Of a stretch of 49,299 bases of DNA, positions 17,240-40,712 are shown one piece after another. Every line of letters begins with the position of its first letter. Positions within the stretch are counted from its first letter, which is position 1. The stretch covers positions 1 through 49,299 of the forward strand of contig CAZOXS010000022.1 of NCBI GenBank assembly GCA_964583785.1, read 5' to 3'. The position numbers and the translations under genes are program-made. A model generated the notes under the pieces. The model saw only the letters and a list, made by a program, of their open reading frames with translations. It had not been told where the DNA came from and ran no database searches. This stretch comes from an uncultured Victivallales bacterium (GTDB taxonomy: Bacteria; Verrucomicrobiota; Kiritimatiellia; UBA8416).

Positions 17240-20200
17240 GAATTACCGACATCAGTTTAAGACGCCGGGTGGCAGTCACGATGCTGTCCGTTGCCGCGGC
17301 GGTCGCGGGCTTTTTCAGCCTGACGCGACTGGATGTGGATTACCTGCCTGAGATCACCTATCCGATGGTCAAGATCCATATCTACTGGAGCGGGGCGACG
17401 CCCGAGGAGATGGAGACGAATGTGGCCGAACCGGTCGAGCGGGCGATGGCGACGGTGGATAATCTCGACTATCTCGATGGCTCCTGTATCGAAGGCATGT
17501 ACACGCTGCTGGTGAATTTCAACTACGGCGTGGACGTGGACTCCGCCTACCAGGATGTGCTGGCCGTGATGGGGCGCGTCAATCGCCTGCTGCCGGATGA
17601 CATGGATCCGCCGGTGATCATCAAGGCTGATCCCTCGCAACTGCCGGTGATGGAGGTAACTATCGCCTCGGACCAGCGCAGCCTGGTCTGGCTGCGGGAG
17701 TGGGTCGACAACTGGCTGGTAGATCGGCTGAGCGCCGTGCCTGGCACGGCGGGCGCAGAGGTGGTCGGCGGACTGGAACGCGAAATCCGGGTCCATCTCG
17801 ATCCCGCCAGGCTGACTGCCTTCGGTCTCTCGCCGGCGCAGGTTGCGACCGCCTTGCGCCAGGAGAACCGCCAGATTTTTGCCGGGCGGATCACGGTTGA
17901 AACGCGCGAGATCATTGCCCGGACCATGGGCGAATTCGAGTCGCTCGACGAGATTCGCGATACCGCCATCGCGAAAGGCGCAGGCGGCAATCTGGTTTAT
18001 GTGCGCGATGTGGCGCGTGTGGAGGACTCGCACAAGGAATTGCGCGTCAGCACCCGCTTCAACGGTCGCCCCTGCGTGAAGGTCAATGTGCTTAAGCAGG
18101 CCGAGGCCAACACGGTGAAGGTGGCGCAGGCGGTCGAGCGGCAACTGGAGCGGCTGCGCGACCAGATGCCTCCGGATATCGAGTTCGGCGTGTTCGAGAA
18201 CCAGGGCGATTATGTCAACGGCGCGATCCTCAGCGTGCGCGACTCGGCCGTACTGGCGGCTATTCTGGTGATCCTGGTCACGTATCTGTTCCTGGGGCAC
18301 TGGCGGCAGGTCATGGTTATGGCGCTGGCGTTGCCGGTCACCTTGCTGGCGAATTTCATGCTGATGCGGCTGGCTGGCTTTTCGTTGAACCTATTCTCTC
18401 TTGGCGGACTGGTGGTGGCGCTGGGGGTGATTCTCGACAACTCGATCATCGTGCTGGAGAACATCACGCGCCTGAAGCACGAGGAAGACCTTGCCGGACG
18501 GCCGCACAGCCCGCAGACCCTGGTGCGGGCCGTCGCCGAAGTCGGACCGGCGATGATCGCCTCGACCGTGGCGTTCCTGGCGATTTTCCTGCCTTTCCTG
18601 TTCATTCCCGGGCTCGCCTCGTTGCTATTCAAGGAACTAGTCCTCGTGGTCGCGGGCGTGGTCCTGCTGTCGCTGCTGGTGGCTATTACCCTGACCCCGT
18701 TCCTCTCCGACCTGCTGCTCGAGCGGATCCATGGCGGGCAGAAGAGCGGACGGCTGGCCATCTGGTTCGACCGGGGCGTGGAGCGCATCACGTCGGCCTA
18801 CGGCAACGGTCTTTCCCGTGTTTTGCGGTTCCGCTGGGTCGCCCTGATCCTGTTTATTGCCGTCGGTGCCGTCGCGCTGTGGATGAGCGGGACGATCGGC
18901 ACAGAATTCCTGCCGCAAGTGGATGACGGGCGTGCCATGGTGAAACTCAAGATGCCCGCGGGAACCGCCGTCGGCGAGACCGATCGGATTCTGGCCGCGG
19001 TCGAGGCGCAACTGGTCGGTCTGCCGGAGATCGACCGAGTCTTCACTATGGCGGGCGGCCGTGTCTGGGGGCTGGCCACCTATGAGATTGCCGAGGAAGG
19101 TGAAGTCGATATCCAGCTCAAGCCCAAGGCGCAGCGTGACATCAGCACGGAAGCCTTTGTCGAGAAAATCAGGCCGCTGGTCAGGAAGGCGATGGCACCC
19201 GGCGCGAAGATGCCGATCATGCAGATGAAGATCAAGGGCATCCGACAGATCGGCACACAGGATGTTGAGCTGAAAGTACAGGGCGACGACACCGTTGACA
19301 TCTACAACTTCGCCCGCCAGGCCGCCGCCGCGCTGGGCCAGACCCCCGGTCTTTCCGGCGTGAACATCTCGATGGATATGACCAAGCCGGAGTACCGGAT
19401 CTACATTGACCGGGCGCGCGCCGCCGCGCTGGGCATTCCGGTCGCCAGCATTGCCGATGTGTTGCGCGGACTGATCGGCGGAAGCGTCGCCACCGAATAC
19501 CGTGAAGGCAGCGAATACTACGACATCCGCGTCATGGTCCCGGAACCGCAGATCCGGGGCAAGGAAGAGCTGGAAAACCTGATCCTTGACTCGCGCAACG
19601 GTAGCCCCCTTTATGTGCGCGATGTGGCCGAGGTGCGGCGCGCGGTCGGACCGGTGGAGATCAACCGCGAAAACCAGATCAAGCAGGTGCTGGTGCGGGC
19701 CGATGCGGCAGGCATCAGCGTGGGCGAAGCGACCCGACGCGCGATGGAAGCCGTCCGCAAGCTCCCTTCGCCGCCGGGGGTGCAGACCGTTCCCGGCGGC
19801 CAGGCGCAGATGATGGCGGAAAACAGTCGCACGATGGGGCTGATCTTCGGCTTCGCGCTCTTTTTCGCGTTCGTAACGCTGGCGGTCCAGTTCGAGAGCT
19901 ACCGCCTGCCGCTAATTATCCTTCTTTCCGTCCCCTTCTGCCTGGCTGGGCTGGTCTATGCCCTGCTGCTGACCGGTCTGTCGATCGGCGCGACTGTCGC
20001 CATCGGTGTATTTGTAGTTATCGCGGCAGCCGTCAACGATGGCGTGCTGCTGCTGAGCTATGCGGAAGAGCTGCACACGAAGGAGAACCGTTCGCCCGTT
20101 GAAGCGGTCTTGACCGCCGCCAAAATCCGGCTGCGCCCGCGTGTGATGACCACGCTCAGCACCATCGCGGGGCTCATACCACTGGCGCTGAACCTGGGCG

Positions 20201-20343
20201 AAGGCGGCGACCTGCTCAAACCCATGGCCATCGCCGGCATCGGCGGCCTCGTCATGGAAATCGCCGTCGCCTTGTTTCTCATGCCGGTATTGTATATACT
20301 GTTCACAACAACGCCGCACCAAACAAAGGAGGACGCAAAATGA
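17236..20343 (+). CDS. RND efflux transporter inner-membrane permease (AcrB/CzcA superfamily)
   Basis: 1035 aa, 12-TM/two-loop architecture, TM4 motif GGLVVALGVILDNSIIVLENI, C-terminal half VNDGVLLLSYAEEL. Confidence 0.95.
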   Translation: MRITDISLRRRVAVTMLSVAAAVAGFFSLTRLDVDYLPEITYPMVKIHIYWSGATPEEMETNVAEPVERAMATVDNLDYLDGSCIEGMYTLLVNFNYGVDVDSAYQDVLAVMGRVNRLLPDDMDPPVIIKADPSQLPVMEVTIASDQRSLVWLREWVDNWLVDRLSAVPGTAGAEVVGGLEREIRVHLDPARLTAFGLSPAQVATALRQENRQIFAGRITVETREIIARTMGEFESLDEIRDTAIAKGAGGNLVYVRDVARVEDSHKELRVSTRFNGRPCVKVNVLKQAEANTVKVAQAVERQLERLRDQMPPDIEFGVFENQGDYVNGAILSVRDSAVLAAILVILVTYLFLGHWRQVMVMALALPVTLLANFMLMRLAGFSLNLFSLGGLVVALGVILDNSIIVLENITRLKHEEDLAGRPHSPQTLVRAVAEVGPAMIASTVAFLAIFLPFLFIPGLASLLFKELVLVVAGVVLLSLLVAITLTPFLSDLLLERIHGGQKSGRLAIWFDRGVERITSAYGNGLSRVLRFRWVALILFIAVGAVALWMSGTIGTEFLPQVDDGRAMVKLKMPAGTAVGETDRILAAVEAQLVGLPEIDRVFTMAGGRVWGLATYEIAEEGEVDIQLKPKAQRDISTEAFVEKIRPLVRKAMAPGAKMPIMQMKIKGIRQIGTQDVELKVQGDDTVDIYNFARQAAAALGQTPGLSGVNISMDMTKPEYRIYIDRARAAALGIPVASIADVLRGLIGGSVATEYREGSEYYDIRVMVPEPQIRGKEELENLILDSRNGSPLYVRDVAEVRRAVGPVEINRENQIKQVLVRADAAGISVGEATRRAMEAVRKLPSPPGVQTVPGGQAQMMAENSRTMGLIFGFALFFAFVTLAVQFESYRLPLIILLSVPFCLAGLVYALLLTGLSIGATVAIGVFVVIAAAVNDGVLLLSYAEELHTKENRSPVEAVLTAAKIRLRPRVMTTLSTIAGLIPLALNLGEGGDLLKPMAIAGIGGLVMEIAVALFLMPVLYILFTTTPHQTKEDAK

Positions 20344-20570
20344 AGATCCAGATCCTGGGCACGGGGTGCCCGAAATGCAAGAAACTGACCGAAGCCGCTG
20401 AGATTGCCGCCAAGGAACTCGGGCTCGCCTATGAGCTGGAAAAGGTCTCGGACATCAACGACATCATGGCCATGGGTGTGATGATGACCCCCGCCCTCGC
20501 GGTCGATGGCGTGGTCAAGAGCACAGGCAAGATATTGAGCCCTGAAGAGATCAAGAAGTTCCTCAAATAA
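20340..20570 (+). CDS. small thioredoxin-fold protein (redox-active disulfide protein 2 / MTH895-like)
   Basis: MKIQILGTGCPKCKKL (CxxC), 76 aa, typical partner of COG0701 permeases. 4-nt overlap with the RND gene. Confidence 0.8.
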   Translation: MKIQILGTGCPKCKKLTEAAEIAAKELGLAYELEKVSDINDIMAMGVMMTPALAVDGVVKSTGKILSPEEIKKFLK

Positions 20571-20587
20571 GGAAAGGAGAAGACATC

Positions 20588-20962
20588 ATGGGTACGAATT
20601 GTGCATGCAGTGCCGCGCCGAAACTGATTTTCGCCTGCTCAGGGGCTGCCGACGTCGGCGCAGTGGCCGATCAGGCTGCCCGCAAGCTGACCCGCGACGG
20701 CGTGGGCAAGATGTTCTGTACGGTAGGGATCGGCGGACGCATCAGCGGGATCCTGAAGACGACCGAGGCGGCCGAGGCCATCCTAGCCATCGACGGCTGC
20801 CCGCTCAACTGCGTCAAGAGCAGTTTGACCGAGGCCGGATTCGGCAACTTCAAGCACCTGCAGTTGGCCGATCTCGGCATGACCAAGGGCGCAACCGATG
20901 TGAACGAAACCAATATTGCAAAAGCGGCGGCACAGGGTGCAGCCGTTCTTCAGGAGGTATGA
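20588..20962 (+). CDS. DGC-domain putative zinc-binding protein
   Basis: KLIFACSGAADVG...AIDGCPLNCVKSSL (DGC motif). RBS GGAAAGGAG upstream. Confidence 0.75.
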   Translation: MGTNCACSAAPKLIFACSGAADVGAVADQAARKLTRDGVGKMFCTVGIGGRISGILKTTEAAEAILAIDGCPLNCVKSSLTEAGFGNFKHLQLADLGMTKGATDVNETNIAKAAAQGAAVLQEV

Positions 20963-21390
20963 TGATGACGATGCTGAAAAACAGTTTGTGCGTATTGATG
21001 GGGATTGGACTGCTCGCGATGACTGCGTGCGCCAAGGATGCCGAGACGCCGGCACCGGCGGCCGAGGCGAAGGTCGCCTTGCCGAAGCTGGTCGATCTGG
21101 GTGCCAAGGCTTGCATCCCCTGCAAGAAGATGGCCCCGATCCTGGAGGAACTGACCACGGAATACAAAGGCGTCTTCGATGTCGAGTTCATCGATGTCTG
21201 GCAACCCGAGAACCAGGAAAAAGCCAAGACTTACGGGATCAAGTCGATCCCGACGCAGATTTTCCTGGACTCCAAAGGTAAGGAACTGGGGCGTCATGAG
21301 GGTTTCATCGCCAAAGAGGATATCCTGAAGAAGTGGCAAGCACTTGGCGTGAGTATTAAGACGAAAGCGGATATGGAACACAACGAATGA
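20959..21390 (+). CDS. thioredoxin-fold lipoprotein (CxxC)
   Basis: Internal ATG 20959 of track ORF 20599..21390, preceded by AGGAGG. MMMTMLKNSLCVLMGIGLLAMTAC (lipobox), KACIPCKKMAPILEEL, IPTQIFLDSKGKEL. The last codons (MEHNE-stop) lie inside the first 16-nt repeat unit. Confidence 0.8.
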   Translation: MMMTMLKNSLCVLMGIGLLAMTACAKDAETPAPAAEAKVALPKLVDLGAKACIPCKKMAPILEELTTEYKGVFDVEFIDVWQPENQEKAKTYGIKSIPTQIFLDSKGKELGRHEGFIAKEDILKKWQALGVSIKTKADMEHNE

Positions 21391-21523
21391 TCGACACAAC
21401 GAATATGGGACACAACGAATTTTTTGCACAACGAATATGGAACACAGCAAATGGGGAATCATATAATATGGTAACGATGTTCACCCTTATTCCCATTCGT
21501 TGTGCAGCCCATTCGTTGTGCAA
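21379..21523. repeat. 16-nt tandem-unit palindrome: 5 forward units (CACAACGAATATGGRA) followed by 2 inverted units
   Basis: CACAACGAAT at 21379, 21395, 21411 and 21427, plus degenerate CACAGCAAAT at 21443 (exact 16-nt phase). Inverted ATTCGTTGTG at 21495 and 21511. GGGAAT/ATTCCC extends the stem around a loop of about 30 nt. Confidence 0.9.
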
Positions 21524-21570
21524 ATACATTCCTTTTTTACCGCAACTTCTCTTCCCCTATTCATTACGTA

Positions 21571-22395
21571 ATGCAATCACAAGGTGACAATGTGACTAAT
21601 GCTTTGAACGATAATCTTATCTATCCTGAGTTGTCCTACAAGATCATGGGCGCGGCGATGCACGTCCATAATCAACTGGGGCCTGGGTGGGATGAAGATG
21701 CCTATCATTCTGCATTACTACACGCGTTGCGAAAAGCCAGCCTTAAAACAGAAAGCAAGCTGCGAGGTGTGCTTAAACAGCGCGAGCTGTATGCTGACAC
21801 ATTTGAGCTGGACATCCTTGTCGAAGATTCGATCATTCTGGAATTAAAACACCTTGTGGGCAAGTTTCACCCCGCTCACATGATTCAATTGATCAATTAT
21901 CAGAAATTCTGGAAGAAACAATTAGGAATTCTGCTCAACTTTGGTCTTGATCGCCTTCAATTTGAACGGATCCCCTTTACTCCGCGTACCGGCCCATTAA
22001 CCAGTAACGATGCCTACAAACACTTTCAGGAAACCAACCCCGCAAAAGCGAACCACGTTGAATCCATTCTTCAAGCAATTGTGGACGCCCACGGGCTTGG
22101 ATATGGCACCTATGTCTACCGCAATCTTGTACGTACCGAATGTCATTTCAAAAACTGCTCCTGCGAAATGCCGGTCATCCCTCTTTATTACGACTCTTTA
22201 ATGCTCGGGGAAAAACAGGCAGACGTTCTCTGCCTTGATTCCGATCTGCTGCTATTAGTGAATGCTCAGCGCGAAAAAACCTCCGATATTCTTTTAGCGC
22301 GCATGTTGAGCTACCTTCGCAAAACCAATTTATCTGATGGCATTATCGCCACCTTTGGATCTAACGAACTATACCTCAAATATGTTTCCCCATAA
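21571..22395 (+). CDS. tandem GxxExxY-type (PD-(D/E)XK-like) protein; the second copy is degenerate
   Basis: ATG 21571 lies within ORF 21502..22395. The N-half has the family pattern (YPELSYKIMGAAMHVHNQLGPGWDEDAYHSALLHALRKASL...FELDILVEDSIILELKHL...LINYQKFWKKQLGILLNFG). The C-half repeats the pattern weakly (GLGYGTYVYRNLV...ADVLCLDSDLLLLVNAQRE...LSYLRKTNLSDGIIATFG). Visibly more AT-rich than its neighbours. Confidence 0.65.
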   Translation: MQSQGDNVTNALNDNLIYPELSYKIMGAAMHVHNQLGPGWDEDAYHSALLHALRKASLKTESKLRGVLKQRELYADTFELDILVEDSIILELKHLVGKFHPAHMIQLINYQKFWKKQLGILLNFGLDRLQFERIPFTPRTGPLTSNDAYKHFQETNPAKANHVESILQAIVDAHGLGYGTYVYRNLVRTECHFKNCSCEMPVIPLYYDSLMLGEKQADVLCLDSDLLLLVNAQREKTSDILLARMLSYLRKTNLSDGIIATFGSNELYLKYVSP

Positions 22396-22401
22396 CCTCA
22401 A

Positions 22402-22465
22402 ACATTCGCTGTGCAAAAACATTCGCTGTGCAACTCATTCGCTGTGCAAAAACATTCGTTGTGAA
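22402..22465. repeat. 4 inverted copies of the same 16/17-nt unit (CATTCGYTGTGCAAAAA)
   Basis: CATTCG at 22402, 22419, 22435 and 22452. This is the reverse complement of the upstream CACARCGAATG units. Confidence 0.9.
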
Positions 22466-22483
22466 CATCAATAGGAGTCGCAA

Positions 22484-22957
22484 ATGCAAAAAGCAAAACA
22501 CATTCTGACCAAGGGACTGGTGGCCTTTGCGCTGATCAGTATCGGCTTTGCACTGGGCAAGCACGCCGCGCAGCCGTCGTCCAACCCCGTGGCCCCACAG
22601 CCCGCCGCCAACGGACGGCAGATCGCCGTCTACTATCTGCATTCCACCTTCCGCTGCATCACCTGTAACACCATCGAGTCGATGACCCGCGAGCTGCTGG
22701 ACAGCGTCTACAGCAAGGAGCTGACGGATGGGACCATCCAATGGATCGAAGCCGACTTCATGCAGGAGGCGGCACTGGCCCGGCAGTTCGAGGTGGCGGC
22801 CAGCTGCGTCGTCGTGGCAGACATGCGCGATGGCGCCGTACGCGGCTACAAGCGGCTGGATGACGTCTGGACCCGCATGCAGGATCCGGCGGCTTTCAAT
22901 GCATATATTAGCGAGGCTATTGACGGTTACCTGAAGCAGGCGGGCGGCGAATCATGA
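22484..22957 (+). CDS. arsF: ArsF-family protein (nitrophenyl-arsenical nitroreductase subunit family), membrane-anchored thioredoxin-like
   Basis: N-terminal TM helix, then IAVYYLHSTFRCITCNTIESMTRELL...YSKELTDGTIQWIEADF. Matches my recollection of the ArsF family pattern (family-level call only). Confidence 0.6.
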   Translation: MQKAKHILTKGLVAFALISIGFALGKHAAQPSSNPVAPQPAANGRQIAVYYLHSTFRCITCNTIESMTRELLDSVYSKELTDGTIQWIEADFMQEAALARQFEVAASCVVVADMRDGAVRGYKRLDDVWTRMQDPAAFNAYISEAIDGYLKQAGGES

Positions 22958-23631
22958 TCTGGACCGGTATCGTATCGGCTTTCTGGCTCGGCATTTTGAC
23001 TGCGATCAGCCCCTGCCCGCTGGCGACCAACATTGCCGCGATCTCCTTTATCGGCCGCAAGGCCGGGCACAAGCCGCACGTCATCGGTTCGGGACTGCTT
23101 TATTCGGCGGGCCGCACCCTGGCCTACGTGCTTCTCGGAGCGGTGATCACGGCCGGCCTGCTGGGCAGCGCTGAGATTTCGCGTTTCCTTCAAAAGTACA
23201 TGAACGAGGCCCTCGGGCCGATCCTGATCCTCCTGGGGCTGGTGCTGTTGGGCTGGATCGGTTCCGGCATCTCGCTGCACGTGGGCGGCGAGAAACTGCA
23301 GGAAAAGGCCAAACAGGGTGGCATCATCTGGGCCGTACCGATCGGCTTCATCTTTGCCCTCTCCTTCTGCCCGGTCTCGGCCGGTCTCTTCTTCGGCGGA
23401 TTGCTGCCGCTGGCGTTGAAGCAGCAGTCGACGGCCCTGCTGCCGGTCGTCTACGGCATCGGCACCTCGCTGCCGGTGGTGGTCTTCGCCTTCATCCTGG
23501 CCTTCGGTTCCGCCAGCCTCGGCAAGGCCTTCAATAAACTCACCCACATTGAGATCTGGATCCGCCGCCTCGCCGGCACCGCCTTCATCCTGGCGGGCAT
23601 CTATTATTGCCTGAACCACATCTATCAATGA
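22954..23631 (+). CDS. arsG: ArsG-family / CcdA-DsbD-like membrane transporter
   Basis: LGILTAISPCPLATNIAAISFIGRK, six TM segments, 4-nt overlap with the arsF-like gene. Family-level call from motif recollection. Confidence 0.65.
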   Translation: MIWTGIVSAFWLGILTAISPCPLATNIAAISFIGRKAGHKPHVIGSGLLYSAGRTLAYVLLGAVITAGLLGSAEISRFLQKYMNEALGPILILLGLVLLGWIGSGISLHVGGEKLQEKAKQGGIIWAVPIGFIFALSFCPVSAGLFFGGLLPLALKQQSTALLPVVYGIGTSLPVVVFAFILAFGSASLGKAFNKLTHIEIWIRRLAGTAFILAGIYYCLNHIYQ

Positions 23632-23632
23632 T

Positions 23633-23657
23633 CAAAGGCCTCTGCCTTTGCTATTTT
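23633..23657 (+). terminator. rho-independent terminator after the arsG-like gene
   Basis: CAAAGGC-CTCT-GCCTTTG followed by CTATTTT, 2 nt after the stop. Confidence 0.6.
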
Positions 23658-23660
23658 GCC

Positions 23661-23711
23661 TTGACGAACCCGCAGTTAGAGATATATCTTTATTGATAGA
23701 TATCTAAGGAG
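23661..23711 (+). promoter_or_regulatory. vapBC promoter/operator candidate
   Basis: TTGACG at 23661. Two related perfect palindromes, AGATATATCT (23680-23689) and TAGATATCTA (23697-23706). AAGGAG RBS before ATG 23719. Confidence 0.4.
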
Positions 23712-23718
23712 ACTTGTC

Positions 23719-23946
23719 ATGGTAACGGCAAAAGTATTCAAGTCGGGGCGGAGTCAGGCGGTACGGGTGCCAATGCGTTATCGCTTTCACTCCTCCGAGG
23801 TTAATGTACTGGCGACGGCAGACGGTCTACTACTGACGGAAAAAGGACCGTGGGAACTGTTCCGGGAAGGCGTTGACGAGCTGTCTGGTGACTTTATGCC
23901 TGACCGTGTCCAGCCGCCACTCGAGGATCGGGTTTCCCTGGCATGA
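23719..23946 (+). CDS. vapB: VapB-type antitoxin (AbrB/SpoVT fold)
   Basis: MVTAKVFKSGRSQAVRVPMRYRF, 75 aa, 4-nt overlap with the PIN gene. Confidence 0.8.
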   Translation: MVTAKVFKSGRSQAVRVPMRYRFHSSEVNVLATADGLLLTEKGPWELFREGVDELSGDFMPDRVQPPLEDRVSLA

Positions 23947-24416
23947 GTGGCGGTGCCTATATGCTCGACACGAATATCCTCGTTTATATGCTGCGGGGCT
24001 TCAAGGCGGCGAATGCGGGACGGGATATCCACCAGCGGGCGGAACGGATCCGCAACCGGATCGAGCGTGAATTACGGCATGGCGCGGCGATCTATATTTC
24101 CATGGTCACAATCTGCGAACTGGAGTATGGCGCTGGCAAAGCGGTTGATCCGGCAAAAGAGCGCCGGGCGCTTTCCAAGATCCTGGCTCCCTTCGAGCGG
24201 GCGGAGGGCGATTCCGTGAACCTGCCGCGACATTATGGCGAGATCCGCTGCGAACTGGAACAGGCCGGACAGCCAATCGGGGCTATGGATCTCATGATCG
24301 CTGCGCATGCCCGCTCACTGGGTGTAACCTTGGTAACAAACAACGTCAGCGAATTTAATAGGGTTAAGGGGCTGAAGGTAGCCAACTGGGCGGAAACGGG
24401 CACGTCCAAGGAATAA
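23943..24416 (+). CDS. vapC: VapC PIN-domain ribonuclease toxin
   Basis: YMLDTNILVYML...ICELEYG...GAMDLMIAAHARSLGVTLVTNNVSEF (the acidic PIN residues are present). Confidence 0.85.
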   Translation: MSGGAYMLDTNILVYMLRGFKAANAGRDIHQRAERIRNRIERELRHGAAIYISMVTICELEYGAGKAVDPAKERRALSKILAPFERAEGDSVNLPRHYGEIRCELEQAGQPIGAMDLMIAAHARSLGVTLVTNNVSEFNRVKGLKVANWAETGTSKE

Positions 24417-25462: not shown

Positions 25463-25564
25463 TCGGCTGACGATTACGGGCGACGATTACGGATTACGAT
25501 TCAATGTTGTCGGGCAAGGAGAGCTAATCGTCCATCGTAATCGTCGCCCGTTATCGTCAACCGA
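25463..25564. repeat. 13-nt tandem-unit palindrome (3 forward + 3 inverted units, 39-nt arms, 24-nt loop)
   Basis: Left arm TCGGCTGACGATTACGGGCGACGATTACGGATTACGATT (25463-25501). Reverse complement of the right arm (25526-25564) is TCGGTTGACGATAACGGGCGACGATTACGATGGACGATT. Followed by CATGTTTTTG. Confidence 0.9.
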
Positions 25565-28463: not shown

Positions 28464-28547
28464 AGATTAAGGCGAAAGATTAGGTGAAAAGATTAAGGTT
28501 GGTCCTTGGCGCCACTAATCTTTCGCCTTAATCGTTCGCCCTAATCT
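28464..28547. repeat. 13-nt tandem-unit palindrome (3 forward + 3 inverted units), same family as 25463..25564
   Basis: Forward units AGATTAAGGCGAA, AGATTAGGTGAAA and AGATTAAGGTTGG (28464, 28477, 28490). Inverted units ..CCACTAATCT, TTCGCCTTAATCG and TTCGCCCTAATCT (ending 28521, 28534, 28547). TAATCGTTCGCCC here resembles TAATCGTCGCCC in the arsR-arsC element. Confidence 0.9.
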
Positions 28548-39260: not shown

Positions 39261-39337
39261 TTGTTGACAAGGTTGACCTTATTGACCCTGTTGACCTTGT
39301 TGTCAATAAGGTCATCTTGGTCAACCCGGTCAAAAAA
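39261..39337. repeat. 9-nt tandem-unit palindrome R2 (5 x TTGAC-type units then 3 x GTCA-type units)
   Basis: TTGAC/TTGTC at 39264, 39273, 39282, 39291 and 39300. GTCA at 39311, 39320 and 39329. Exact 9-nt phase, ending GGTCAAAAAAA. Confidence 0.9.
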
Positions 39338-39351
39338 ATTGCAGTCTGCCC

Positions 39352-40101
39352 TCATGCCGGTCTCGTCCCCTTGCAATCCGGGTAGGCGGTGCATCCCCAG
39401 AAATCGCCCTTGGCCGACCGGCGCCCGCGCATGGGCTTGCCGCATTGGGGGCATTCCGGTGTGTCAGCCGCTTGCTGCTGGTCGCGCACTTCGACCCGCC
39501 GGGCGGTCAGGCGCTCGCGGAATCCGCCGCCCTCCTCGAAGGCCTTGCCTTGCGACTCCTTCAGGCGCTTGAGCATCTTCAGGACGCGGCCGAGCAGGAT
39601 GAGCATGACGTTGGCGACCACTACACCATCGTCGGAATCGAGCCAGCGGGCGTATTTCCGGCGCTGCGCCAGCGCGTGGCGGGCCGACTCATGCACCATG
39701 TCGTCAGTAAAAGGTGCATCATCGAGCGCGATGGCATTGACGGCCTTGACTTCGGGATCATGTACCGACCACGGCAGTTCGCCGCGGTCGAGGATGAAGA
39801 TCTCGTAATCGCCGCGCAGCTCGCTCAAACTCGCGCGGGCGACATCGGTCAGGCGCATCTCGGTGTCCTTCGAGGTCGAGGCGCGCTCCGAACCCTCGAT
39901 AATGTTCTGGCGTCCGCTGCGGGCGGCCTGGGTCATCTGGTCGTACTGCCGCCCCTTGGGGTCGTAGAATTTGTCGGTCTCGCGATGGTCGAAGGTCAGG
40001 AACTGGCGGCAGAACCGCAAGGTATCGAGCTGCACGATCGTGGCAAGCGTAAAGGCGTGCAGCCGACGAAAACCGCCGTGCTTGTCAAAAAGCTCAGGCA
40101 T
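39352..40101 (-). CDS. four-helix-bundle protein (23S rRNA IVS-protein family, with suffix domain) fused to a topoisomerase-type C4 zinc finger
   Basis: Trimmed to MPELFDKHGGFRRLHAF (ATG 40101, AAGGAG RBS); the track ORF to 40428 runs through the repeats and into the tmRNA gene. QAARSGRQNIIEGSERASTSKDTEMRLTDVARASLSELRGDYE matches the family pattern. C-terminal CPQCGKPMRGRRSAKGDFWGCTAYPDCKGT. Confidence 0.75.
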   Translation of the reverse strand: MPELFDKHGGFRRLHAFTLATIVQLDTLRFCRQFLTFDHRETDKFYDPKGRQYDQMTQAARSGRQNIIEGSERASTSKDTEMRLTDVARASLSELRGDYEIFILDRGELPWSVHDPEVKAVNAIALDDAPFTDDMVHESARHALAQRRKYARWLDSDDGVVVANVMLILLGRVLKMLKRLKESQGKAFEEGGGFRERLTARRVEVRDQQQAADTPECPQCGKPMRGRRSAKGDFWGCTAYPDCKGTRPA

Positions 40102-40123
40102 GGGGTGCTCCTTGCGGGGTGGG

Positions 40124-40277
40124 GTGACCTGGTTGACCTTATTGACCTTGTTGCCAATCGGGCCAATAAGGCCAACAGGTTTAACACCGGCATCATACAA
40201 ACCACTATCACCCGCGTCAACAAGGTCATTTGACAAAAACCCGTCAGCAAGCTCAATCCGGTCAATAGGGTCATCAG
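40124..40277. repeat. 9-nt tandem-unit palindrome R3 (about 17 phased units), same orientation as R2
   Basis: GGTTGACCTTATTGACC (40131-40147) is identical to 39272-39288. TGACC at 40125, 40134 and 40143, then TGCCA/GGCCA units. Inverted GTCAAC/GGTCAT/GTCAAT units from 40216 to 40275. Confidence 0.9.
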
Positions 40278-40309
40278 CATGGTGTTGGCCATTGCCGGAA
40301 TGGCGGACA

Positions 40310-40355: not shown

Positions 40356-40712
40356 TGGTGGAGGCGGCGGGAGTCGAACCCGCGTCCGCAGTGGAGTCAC
40401 TCAAGTATCTACGTGTGTATTCTGCCATTAGGTCTCGCCACGGTAACTACGGACAGACACGCTGTCACCGCCGCCAGTCTCAGCATTGTTTCGCAGGTCG
40501 CGCCTGAGACGCACACGCCCGACTATCCTGCTGTCGTCGCCCCGGTCCGTTTAGCAGGTGTCAACGGCGGAACGCGTGGCCCGTTATTTAGGCCGCGAGA
40601 GCTAATTCAGTATCAGCACTTAATGTTTTGCCCGGATTTTTTACGAGGCCAACCAGACATCCTCGACACGCAACCTCAGCTTCAACCATCACGTCGAAAC
40701 CAAATCGCCCCC
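40356..40712 (-). ncRNA. ssrA: tmRNA (transfer-messenger RNA)
   Basis: Minus-strand 5' GGGGGCGATTTGGTTTCGACG... and 3' ...GGACGCGGGTTCGACTCCCGCCGCCTCCACCA (T-arm plus acceptor with a G3:U pair). Tag frame GGC AAA ACA TTA AGT GCT GAT ACT GAA TTA GCT CTC GCG GCC TAA gives (A)GKTLSADTELALAA, with the stop at 40588-40590. Confidence 0.92.

Follow-up and report, generated by a model that had tools for sequence, protein, structure and literature searches.

Inverted short-core repeat arrays around a two-domain GxxExxY gene in an arsenic operon, and related gene-less palindromes in several bacterial phyla

REP-associated tyrosine transposases (RAYTs) are HUH Y1 enzymes of the IS200/IS605 type, and their partnership with repetitive extragenic palindromes (REPs) and REP doublets forming hairpins (REPINs) offers the nearest described parallel to the element reported here. 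This element is a cassette within 49,299 nt of contig CAZOXS010000022.1 from an uncultured Victivallales bacterium (the whole stretch is called the window below), in which a tandem two-domain GxxExxY (PDDEXK_3) gene lies between inverted arrays of a short repeat inside an arsenic (ars) operon. We put at roughly 0.5 the probability that the cassette is one resident copy of a cognate nuclease-plus-palindrome system, with an architecture like that of REP/RAYT and a PD-(D/E)XK protein as the partner. As in REP/RAYT systems, short palindromes are dispersed, mostly between genes, with some genomes other than that of the window containing many near-identical copies, and a low-copy partner gene flanked by inverted repeats occupies the same slot in related species. 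Such partner-flanking repeats occur in 11 of 12 loci sampled from the protein side, the window among them, and in eight loci reached from the repeat side; the repeat sequence tracks the protein lineage, and target-site duplications are not evident. In contrast to REP/RAYT, the partner is a PD-(D/E)XK rather than an HUH Y1 protein, with no Y1_Tnp gene near the hairpins, the arm is a dimer of an 8-nt core conserved across phyla rather than a single REP, and in Kiritimatiellota the gene is found within the loop. A REP also carries a GTAG or CGTC tetranucleotide tag at one end (PMC3733652), whereas the arms described here start N-CAACGAAT and lack either tag.

A second parallel is given by the open reading frame (ORF)-bearing intervening sequences (IVSs) of 23S rRNA, for which a mobile-element origin has been proposed; in Coxiella a 28-bp terminal stem encloses the ORF and is cut by RNase III (PMC4990558). 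The IVSs of Leptospira and Coxiella resemble the cassette in holding an ORF of about 0.4-0.8 kb within terminal inverted repeats of ~28 bp while the host unit stays functional. They differ from it in their site, helix 25 or 45 of 23S rRNA rather than a protein-coding operon, in their ORF, which belongs to the four-helix-bundle S23p family rather than to PDDEXK_3, and in their arms, which in the cassette consist of a conserved short core that can be amplified into arrays. Miniature inverted-repeat transposable elements (MITEs) and foldback elements with subterminal arrays, as at the ends of Mu or Tn7, share the arrangement of repeats that are direct within each end and inverted between ends, and they share multi-copy gene-less derivatives, including derivation by internal deletion as seen at one of our loci (L136). 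Unlike them, the cassette encodes no recognised transposase family and shows no evident target-site duplication, and its gene-bearing form appears to be single-copy and positionally stable. The function of PDDEXK_3 is listed as 'Unknown' in a Pfam survey (PMC3424549). Full-text literature searches turned up no functional work on GxxExxY or PDDEXK_3, and no earlier description of a GxxExxY gene-repeat pairing or of the core sequence, including as REPIN/RAYT in these phyla.

Anatomy and insertion of the cassette

The cassette comprises 11 repeat units with the core CACA(A/G)CGAAT around an AT-rich gene of 0.8 kb, five direct and two inverted units lying upstream and four inverted units downstream. 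On the plus strand CACAACGAAT starts at 21379, 21395, 21411 and 21427 and is followed by a degenerate copy, CACAGCAAAT, at 21443. A preliminary description, made from the sequence alone, had located the five direct units in 16-nt phase and the two inverted ones at precisely these positions. It had also reported the four downstream units, which are indeed present, but had placed each of them one base too low: in the form CATTCGYTGTG they start at 22403, 22420, 22436 and 22453, and the core itself at 22404, 22421, 22437 and 22454. In Tandem Repeats Finder the arrays come out as repeats of 16/32 nt and 17 nt. Elsewhere in the 49.3-kb window the unit has no exact match. With one mismatch allowed the window contains 18 matches against 6.25 +/- 2.4 in shuffled sequences, none of 100 shuffles reaching 18. 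A search for further copies gave only one weak direct pair (19491/19509, one mismatch) within an efflux gene, which we judged to be chance. Chance or slippage as the origin of the arrays was ruled out by these shuffles together with the recurrence of the arrays in relatives.

The segments 21411-21436 and 21495-21520 form a complete two-core palindrome, with arms of 26 nt that are 85% complementary and a loop of 58 nt, and the RNA fold of 21365-21535 has a z-score of -3.7 relative to shuffles. Arms of 16-33 nt in the window are 79-94% complementary. The minimum-free-energy fold of 21365-22480 pairs the upstream with the downstream array, their long-range complementarity being only about 79% with many A.C mismatches. 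The higher AT content noted by eye in the preliminary description was borne out by a GC content of 0.42-0.46 across 21300-22500 against about 0.59-0.63 on either side, and family matches bear out the neighbours it had named, a thioredoxin (Trx) gene, ArsF and ArsG. The thioredoxin gene takes its final four codons and its stop codon (CAC AAC GAA TGA, 21379-21390) from the first repeat unit, and at another locus (L012) the stop codon likewise overlaps the first core. A search for a promoter or terminator in the cassette gave no matches above shuffle expectation. The orientation of the cassette, which is that of the operon, and the lack of a recognisable promoter make transcription by read-through probable. 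No rRNA was found by Rfam in window positions 20000-24000, where the cassette lies between the thioredoxin gene and arsF.

The gene product matches the profiles TIGR04256 GxxExxY (E 1.4e-35, 122.1 bits, cut-off 35) and PF13366 (E 1.2e-32, 113.1 bits, cut-off 22), each over two stretches, and is therefore a tandem two-domain protein. In the N-terminal domain the residues G39-x-x-E42-x-x-Y45, D81, E91 and K93 are invariant or nearly so across 39 homologs. The C-terminal domain duplicates this fold with the reading GxxTxxY and without an ExK; its catalytic residues are lost in the Kiritimatiellota and Chloroflexota versions alike. Read from its sequence, the protein is a built-in pseudo-dimer of one domain with an intact predicted active site and one degenerate domain. 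Searches of PDB sequences with phmmer and with profiles found no solved homolog. An AlphaFold2 model (mean predicted local distance difference test score, pLDDT, 92.8) was compared by Foldseek and matched generic PD-(D/E)XK folds only, best of all Cas4 (4ic1, E 3.5e-4), and also lambda exonuclease, Hjc and EndA. Tandem catalytic and structural endonucleases such as the archaeal tRNA-splicing endonuclease similarly join an active and a degenerate repeat of one nuclease fold. That enzyme acts on a symmetric nucleic-acid structure, as the cassette protein may do; it differs in having no sequence relationship to the cassette protein and a weak structural similarity (Foldseek E 0.05-0.5), the best fold match being Cas4. 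A pseudo-dimer with a single active site would make an attractive correspondence with a repeat of two cores. We also considered a defence-system or phage protein and rejected it: PADLOC and PHROGs gave no match, and the hairpin pattern described below is absent from the viral contigs of IMG/VR.

Orthologous operons were found by scanning metagenome contigs with ArsF as the query. In six of them (L138, L139, L140, L142, L145 and L151), whose ArsF is 46-71% identical to that of the window, the Trx-ArsF gap measures 34-59 nt and contains no core. The site is filled in close relatives, namely in two contigs nearly identical to the window (L135 and L144, with the same arrays and no array-length polymorphism), in L001 (ArsF 87% identical) and in L002 and L137 (71%). 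At L136 (ArsF 74%) the flanking arrays are kept and the middle of the gene is lost; this decayed, internally deleted copy illustrates a route by which decay can lead from a cassette with its gene to a palindrome without one. A comparable slot between Trx and DsbD is filled in L005 and L119, with cassette proteins 48-50% identical. Judged by these empty, filled and decayed sites, the cassette is an insertion, as the preliminary description had proposed, and the ars operon is simply its host site. The slot is conserved among relatives, and the insertion is therefore old and not recent. Two more distant Trx-ArsF operons (L148 674-1558 and L150 1896-2791) have no cassette in the slot; what fills it is ~880 nt of Cys-rich coding sequence by which the Trx gene is apparently extended.

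Table 1. Positions of the cassette components and host genes in the window
Feature	Position	Strand	Details
Thioredoxin host gene	20959..21390	+	N-terminal signal peptide; Pfam Thioredoxin E 3.3e-13
Upstream direct array	21379..21452	+	4 exact units + 1 degenerate, core CACAACGAAT; 16-nt period exact, 32-nt super-period
Two inverted units 5' of the ORF	21495..21520	-	Unit starts 21495, 21511
Tandem two-domain GxxExxY / PDDEXK_3 gene	21571..22395	+	ATG 21571; alternative start GTG 21592
Downstream inverted array	22403..22463	-	4 units CATTCG(C/T)TGTG, period 16-17 nt; ends 20 nt 5' of the ArsF start codon
ArsF host gene	22484-22957	+	NCBIfam NF040494 E 6e-24
ArsG host gene	22954-23631	+	NCBIfam NF040495 E 1.8e-81

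Between arsG and the remaining ars cluster lies a VapBC-like toxin-antitoxin pair (23719-24416), consisting of a weak MazE-type antitoxin match and a PIN-domain gene.

Pairing of the gene with short-core repeats

A protein search returned about 70 two-domain relatives; searched with a profile, 1.84 billion representative proteins yielded 138 at E <= 1e-30, roughly 90 of them full-length. We analysed the contigs of 12 distinct two-domain homologs (32-100% identity, the window counted), and at 11 of the 12 the gene is bracketed by inverted short-core repeats; the core CA(A/G)CGAAT is present at eight, the window included. The core is invariant although the proteins share roughly 25-40% identity, and it drifts in more distant proteins, to CAGCGGAT in L009, TACGGAT in L155 and CAACGGAG in L157. 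In its simplest form the repeat is one pair of 27-33-nt arms with two cores each, 16-19 nt apart (L010 and L012, and L040 and L087 from the repeat scan below). The Kiritimatiellota arms abut the ORF, ending 2-12 nt 5' of the start codon and beginning again 4-7 nt 3' of the stop, and are 89-100% complementary. At seven loci (the window, L001, L002, L005, L009, L155 and L157) the arms are amplified to arrays, and direct arrays reach 8 units (window, L155, L157). The GC content of the cassette is below that of its surroundings at every locus measured.

The host contexts are unrelated to one another: the cassette sits between Trx and ArsF or DsbD, between sulfite reductase and GltD, between UbiA and UbiX, or among sugar or methyltransferase genes (menaquinone synthesis in L010, sulfite reductase in L012, sugar or methyltransferase operons in L009, L011 and L155-L158). 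This bears on the suggestion that the protein regulates the ars/thioredoxin operon, with the arrays as operators or iterons. One could cite in its favour that the arrays are regularly spaced and that several ars clusters, with cassette proteins 48-79% identical, carry the cassette in the same position (Trx|ArsF or Trx|DsbD). A regulator of this operon is nevertheless highly improbable, given that the same gene-plus-repeat unit occurs in the menaquinone, sulfite-reductase, sugar and methyltransferase loci, that functional-looking operons do without the cassette, and that the catalytic residues of the nuclease are invariant.

Single-domain GxxExxY genes are flanked by two-core inverted repeats as well, of other sequences (L011 6631-7011 and 8313-8675; L101 4836-5285; L109 2-496), the L101 gene by a perfect 29-nt inverted pair, TTAACGCAGAGGCGCGGAGGCGCAGAGGG; the repeat sequence therefore tracks the protein lineage. 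At a further locus (L085 2400-2750), in a metagenome-assembled genome from Chloroflexota, a single-domain GxxExxY gene is directly preceded by four tandem CAACGAAT hairpins whose cores recur every 11 nt. Thermoflexales and Anaerolineae loci (L026, L053, L066, L088, L106 and L115-L117) have similar variants of short period.

The L010 locus (Pontiellaceae B1224) carries an ORF-free hairpin of the CARCGAAT-type repeat 1.5 kb from its cassette, and because of this hairpin we scanned 596 Gb for the gene-less pattern CAACGAATN{7,11}CARCGAATN{0,30}ATTCGYTG, that is [CAACGAAT-spacer-CARCGAAT]-loop-[inverse], and read the loci as 8-kb pieces. There were at least 120 matches, against about 3 expected by arithmetic from equal base frequencies. 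The matches listed are nearly all clean palindromes and come from at least six phyla. They include Chloroflexota (Anaerolineae, Caldilineales, Thermoflexales, Ardenticatenaceae), Planctomycetota, Kiritimatiellota, Verrucomicrobiota and Lentisphaerae, further Cloacimonadales, Ignavibacteriales and Acidimicrobiales, and the giant sulfur bacteria Ca. Parabeggiatoa and Thiomargarita.

A hidden Markov model built from homologs was then used to find GxxExxY ORFs in the 120 listed loci. Such an ORF is present in 11, eight of which have a two-domain ORF directly beside or between hairpins; 109 have none within 8 kb. Among the eight are loci from Caldilineales, Anaerolineaceae, Ca. Leptofilum, Pirellulaceae and the isolate Pontiella sulfatireligans F21. 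Together with the 11 of 12 loci sampled from the protein side, they answer a question raised in the preliminary description, whether such arrays accompany GxxExxY relatives elsewhere. The arrangement differs by lineage: in Chloroflexota a complete hairpin stands on either side of the gene, at the Pirellulaceae locus only the upstream hairpin is complete and a two-core half-arm follows the gene, and in Kiritimatiellota the gene occupies the position of the loop of a gene-less hairpin. In 87 hairpin-adjacent genes the only recurring nuclease or mobility families were PDDEXK_3 (4) and Uma2 (2), and no Y1 transposase, RAYT or other transposase was present.

The placement of the gene exactly where a gene-less hairpin has its loop (Kiritimatiellota) or between two complete hairpins (Chloroflexota), and the 109 listed loci without a GxxExxY gene, would also suit a model in which the palindromes form a repeat family of their own, belonging to the host or moved by another enzyme. 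GxxExxY would on that model be a homing-type cassette whose nuclease cuts the palindromes and inserts in or next to their loops. We regard this as quite unlikely. No other enzyme family recurs beside the hairpins, no hairpin is present as a potential target at the empty Trx|ArsF sites, and the L136 cassette decays towards the gene-less form, which is the opposite direction. The model moreover still requires the recognition of repeat by protein on which the nuclease-plus-palindrome system is built.

Gene-less palindromes and the possible action of the nuclease

The cores of the gene-less hairpins are constant, and their 7-11-nt spacers vary by lineage. The spacers are nevertheless 81% Watson-Crick paired, compared with 65% in a cross-locus control, and the base just outside the outer core is paired in 50 of 50 hairpins with all four bases in use. 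An orthologous gene-less hairpin that follows mqnA in four Pontiellaceae genomes has 94% of its cells paired and compensatory double changes at 4 of 27 stem pairs. These pairing patterns speak for selection on symmetry. Several genomes hold multiple loci among the matches listed (Pirellulaceae binchicken_co16_356, 13; Caldilinea aerophila, 7; Parabeggiatoa, 6). Within a genome, copies can be near-identical over 110-130 nt, including the loop and outer flanks, and can stand in both orientations (at least 11 in Pirellulaceae, 6 in one Anaerolineae genome), which indicates copying. These multi-copy gene-less palindromes of other genomes fit the link to foldback-type mobile elements drawn in the preliminary description. 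The flanks of the 120 listed hairpins show extended palindromy and not direct duplications. Most hairpins are intergenic, though 15 of 63 evaluable hairpins overlap crude gene calls; some gene-less copies lie between divergent and between convergent genes. Rfam returned nothing at gathering score on 10 hairpin loci, and at E <= 1 its sole hit in window positions 20000-24000 was an irrelevant mgtE (E 0.87). In the Anaerolineae genome W31_78 (L016, L072, L074, L102, L110 and L133) the two-core palindrome is embedded in a longer, near-identical element of ~130 nt with an additional outer inverted repeat, TCTCGGAAAGT ... ACTTTCCGAGA, which suggests a composite MITE.

The stem may instead act in RNA, a reading with which the compensatory changes agree. 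The flanking repeats might pair in the operon transcript and be cut by host RNase III, which would release the cassette RNA and separate the host cistrons; the repeats would then serve to make the insertion harmless and the protein would have no part in recognising them. The match to the architecture of ORF-bearing 23S IVSs speaks for such excision, as do the 27-33-nt Kiritimatiellota arms that abut the ORF, the co-orientation of cassettes with the host operon without promoter or terminator matches, the pairing of the arrays in the minimum-free-energy fold, and the presence in the window of a second array-flanked cassette that encodes a member of the IVS-protein family (see below). It leaves unexplained, however, why the 8-nt core is invariant from Kiritimatiellota to Chloroflexota, because RNase III recognises structure and not sequence. 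A stem has no need of direct arrays of up to 8 units, the Chloroflexota and Pirellulaceae genes are flanked by complete hairpins rather than enclosed in a single stem, gene-less copies are found between divergent and convergent genes too, and the long-range arms in the window are only about 79% complementary. Among stem mismatches read in the direction of transcription, G.U is not enriched over A.C (12 vs 9; 16 vs 21); this test is weak in that gene orientation at gene-less hairpins was taken from a crude longest-ORF heuristic. Taken with these points, IVS-like excision by RNase III is unlikely.

We favour the cognate nuclease-plus-palindrome system, which could work as follows. The basic repeat would be a half-palindrome of two CA[A/G]CGAAT cores 16-19 nt apart, and the arrays of the window would have arisen from this unit by tandem duplication, with the gene between its direct and inverted sets. 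The two-domain GxxExxY protein may recognise the two-core repeat, nick or cleave at or near the palindrome and so drive copying of the repeat. Gene-less palindromes would behave as non-autonomous copies, comparable to REPINs or MITEs, and could arise by internal deletion of gene-bearing cassettes.

Several observations weigh against this proposal. The window's own 49 kb contains no gene-less copy of the CARCGAAT repeat. Three slots in Kiritimatiellota and two in Chloroflexota are filled across related species, and a gene-less hairpin is found at one orthologous site in the four Pontiellaceae genomes, so that the cassettes and some gene-less copies are old and stable and not visibly mobile. Target-site duplications were not evident in the flanks of the 120 listed hairpins. 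Nearly all cassettes share the orientation of their host operon, and an RNA-level role would suit this as well. Finally, the second cassette in the window encodes an unrelated four-helix-bundle protein and is flanked by palindromic short-unit arrays too, and the architecture may accordingly not depend on the encoded protein or on any one fold.

Further array-flanked elements and implications for the GxxExxY family

The second cassette spans 39261-40290 of the window, with its ORF at about 39355-40104 on the minus strand. The encoded four-helix-bundle 'suffix domain' protein matches TIGR04258 (E 3.6e-13) and, weakly, PF05635 and TIGR02436, and ends in a Zn_ribbon_Top1 domain, a topoisomerase-type zinc ribbon. 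Palindromic arrays of a 9-nt unit with the core TTGACC/GGTCAA flank it at 39261-39336 and about 40125-40290. Its neighbours are a methyltransferase-like gene, annotated by eye, and, immediately adjoining, the transfer-messenger RNA gene (40356-40712, minus strand, tag peptide ADTELALAA). Two gene-less palindromes are also present. One lies in the arsR-arsC gap (25463-25564), where GC dips to 0.44; it has about three GACGATTACGG units per arm and 39-nt arms that are 85% complementary around a 24-nt loop. Its tandem-core style is that of the repeats at the GxxExxY cassette, and its core is a different one. The other follows just 3' of the arsA stop codon (28464-28547), with units AGATTA(A)GG(C/T)GAA and a perfect 19-nt core pair within 32-nt arms. 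The second cassette and these tandem-core palindromes widen the phenomenon beyond the GxxExxY cassette.

The pairing gives GxxExxY, a very large family of about 16,700 clusters at 50% identity to which no function is attached, a concrete and testable partner, namely an 8-nt core arranged in two-core palindromes. It also brings out a family of dispersed palindromic repeats, absent from Rfam and from the literature searched, whose core is common to Chloroflexota, Planctomycetota, the Kiritimatiellota/Verrucomicrobiota/Lentisphaerae group and giant sulfur bacteria. Cultivated hosts exist in Pontiella sulfatireligans F21 and Pontiellaceae B1224, which makes experiments feasible, and a pseudo-dimeric nuclease with one active site and a putative recognition element of 2 x 8 nt, if both are as we infer, could serve as a reagent. 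If the nuclease acts on the repeats, the system would be a second and mechanistically different counterpart to REP/RAYT, and might explain where ORF-bearing rRNA intervening sequences come from.

More tentatively, sequence-specific nuclease activity could be general to GxxExxY proteins, every one of them having a short-core palindromic repeat of its own as partner. They would then constitute, independently of RAYTs, a second class of system that propagates repeats, present in many bacterial phyla. In a bolder variant the nuclease may cut the stem in RNA and excise its own message from host transcripts, which would make the cassette a protein-dependent, intron-like element. The four-helix-bundle 'IVS protein' family may likewise follow the logic of an ORF inside or beside its cognate palindromes, in which case this logic would explain the origin of the ORF-bearing 23S intervening sequences.

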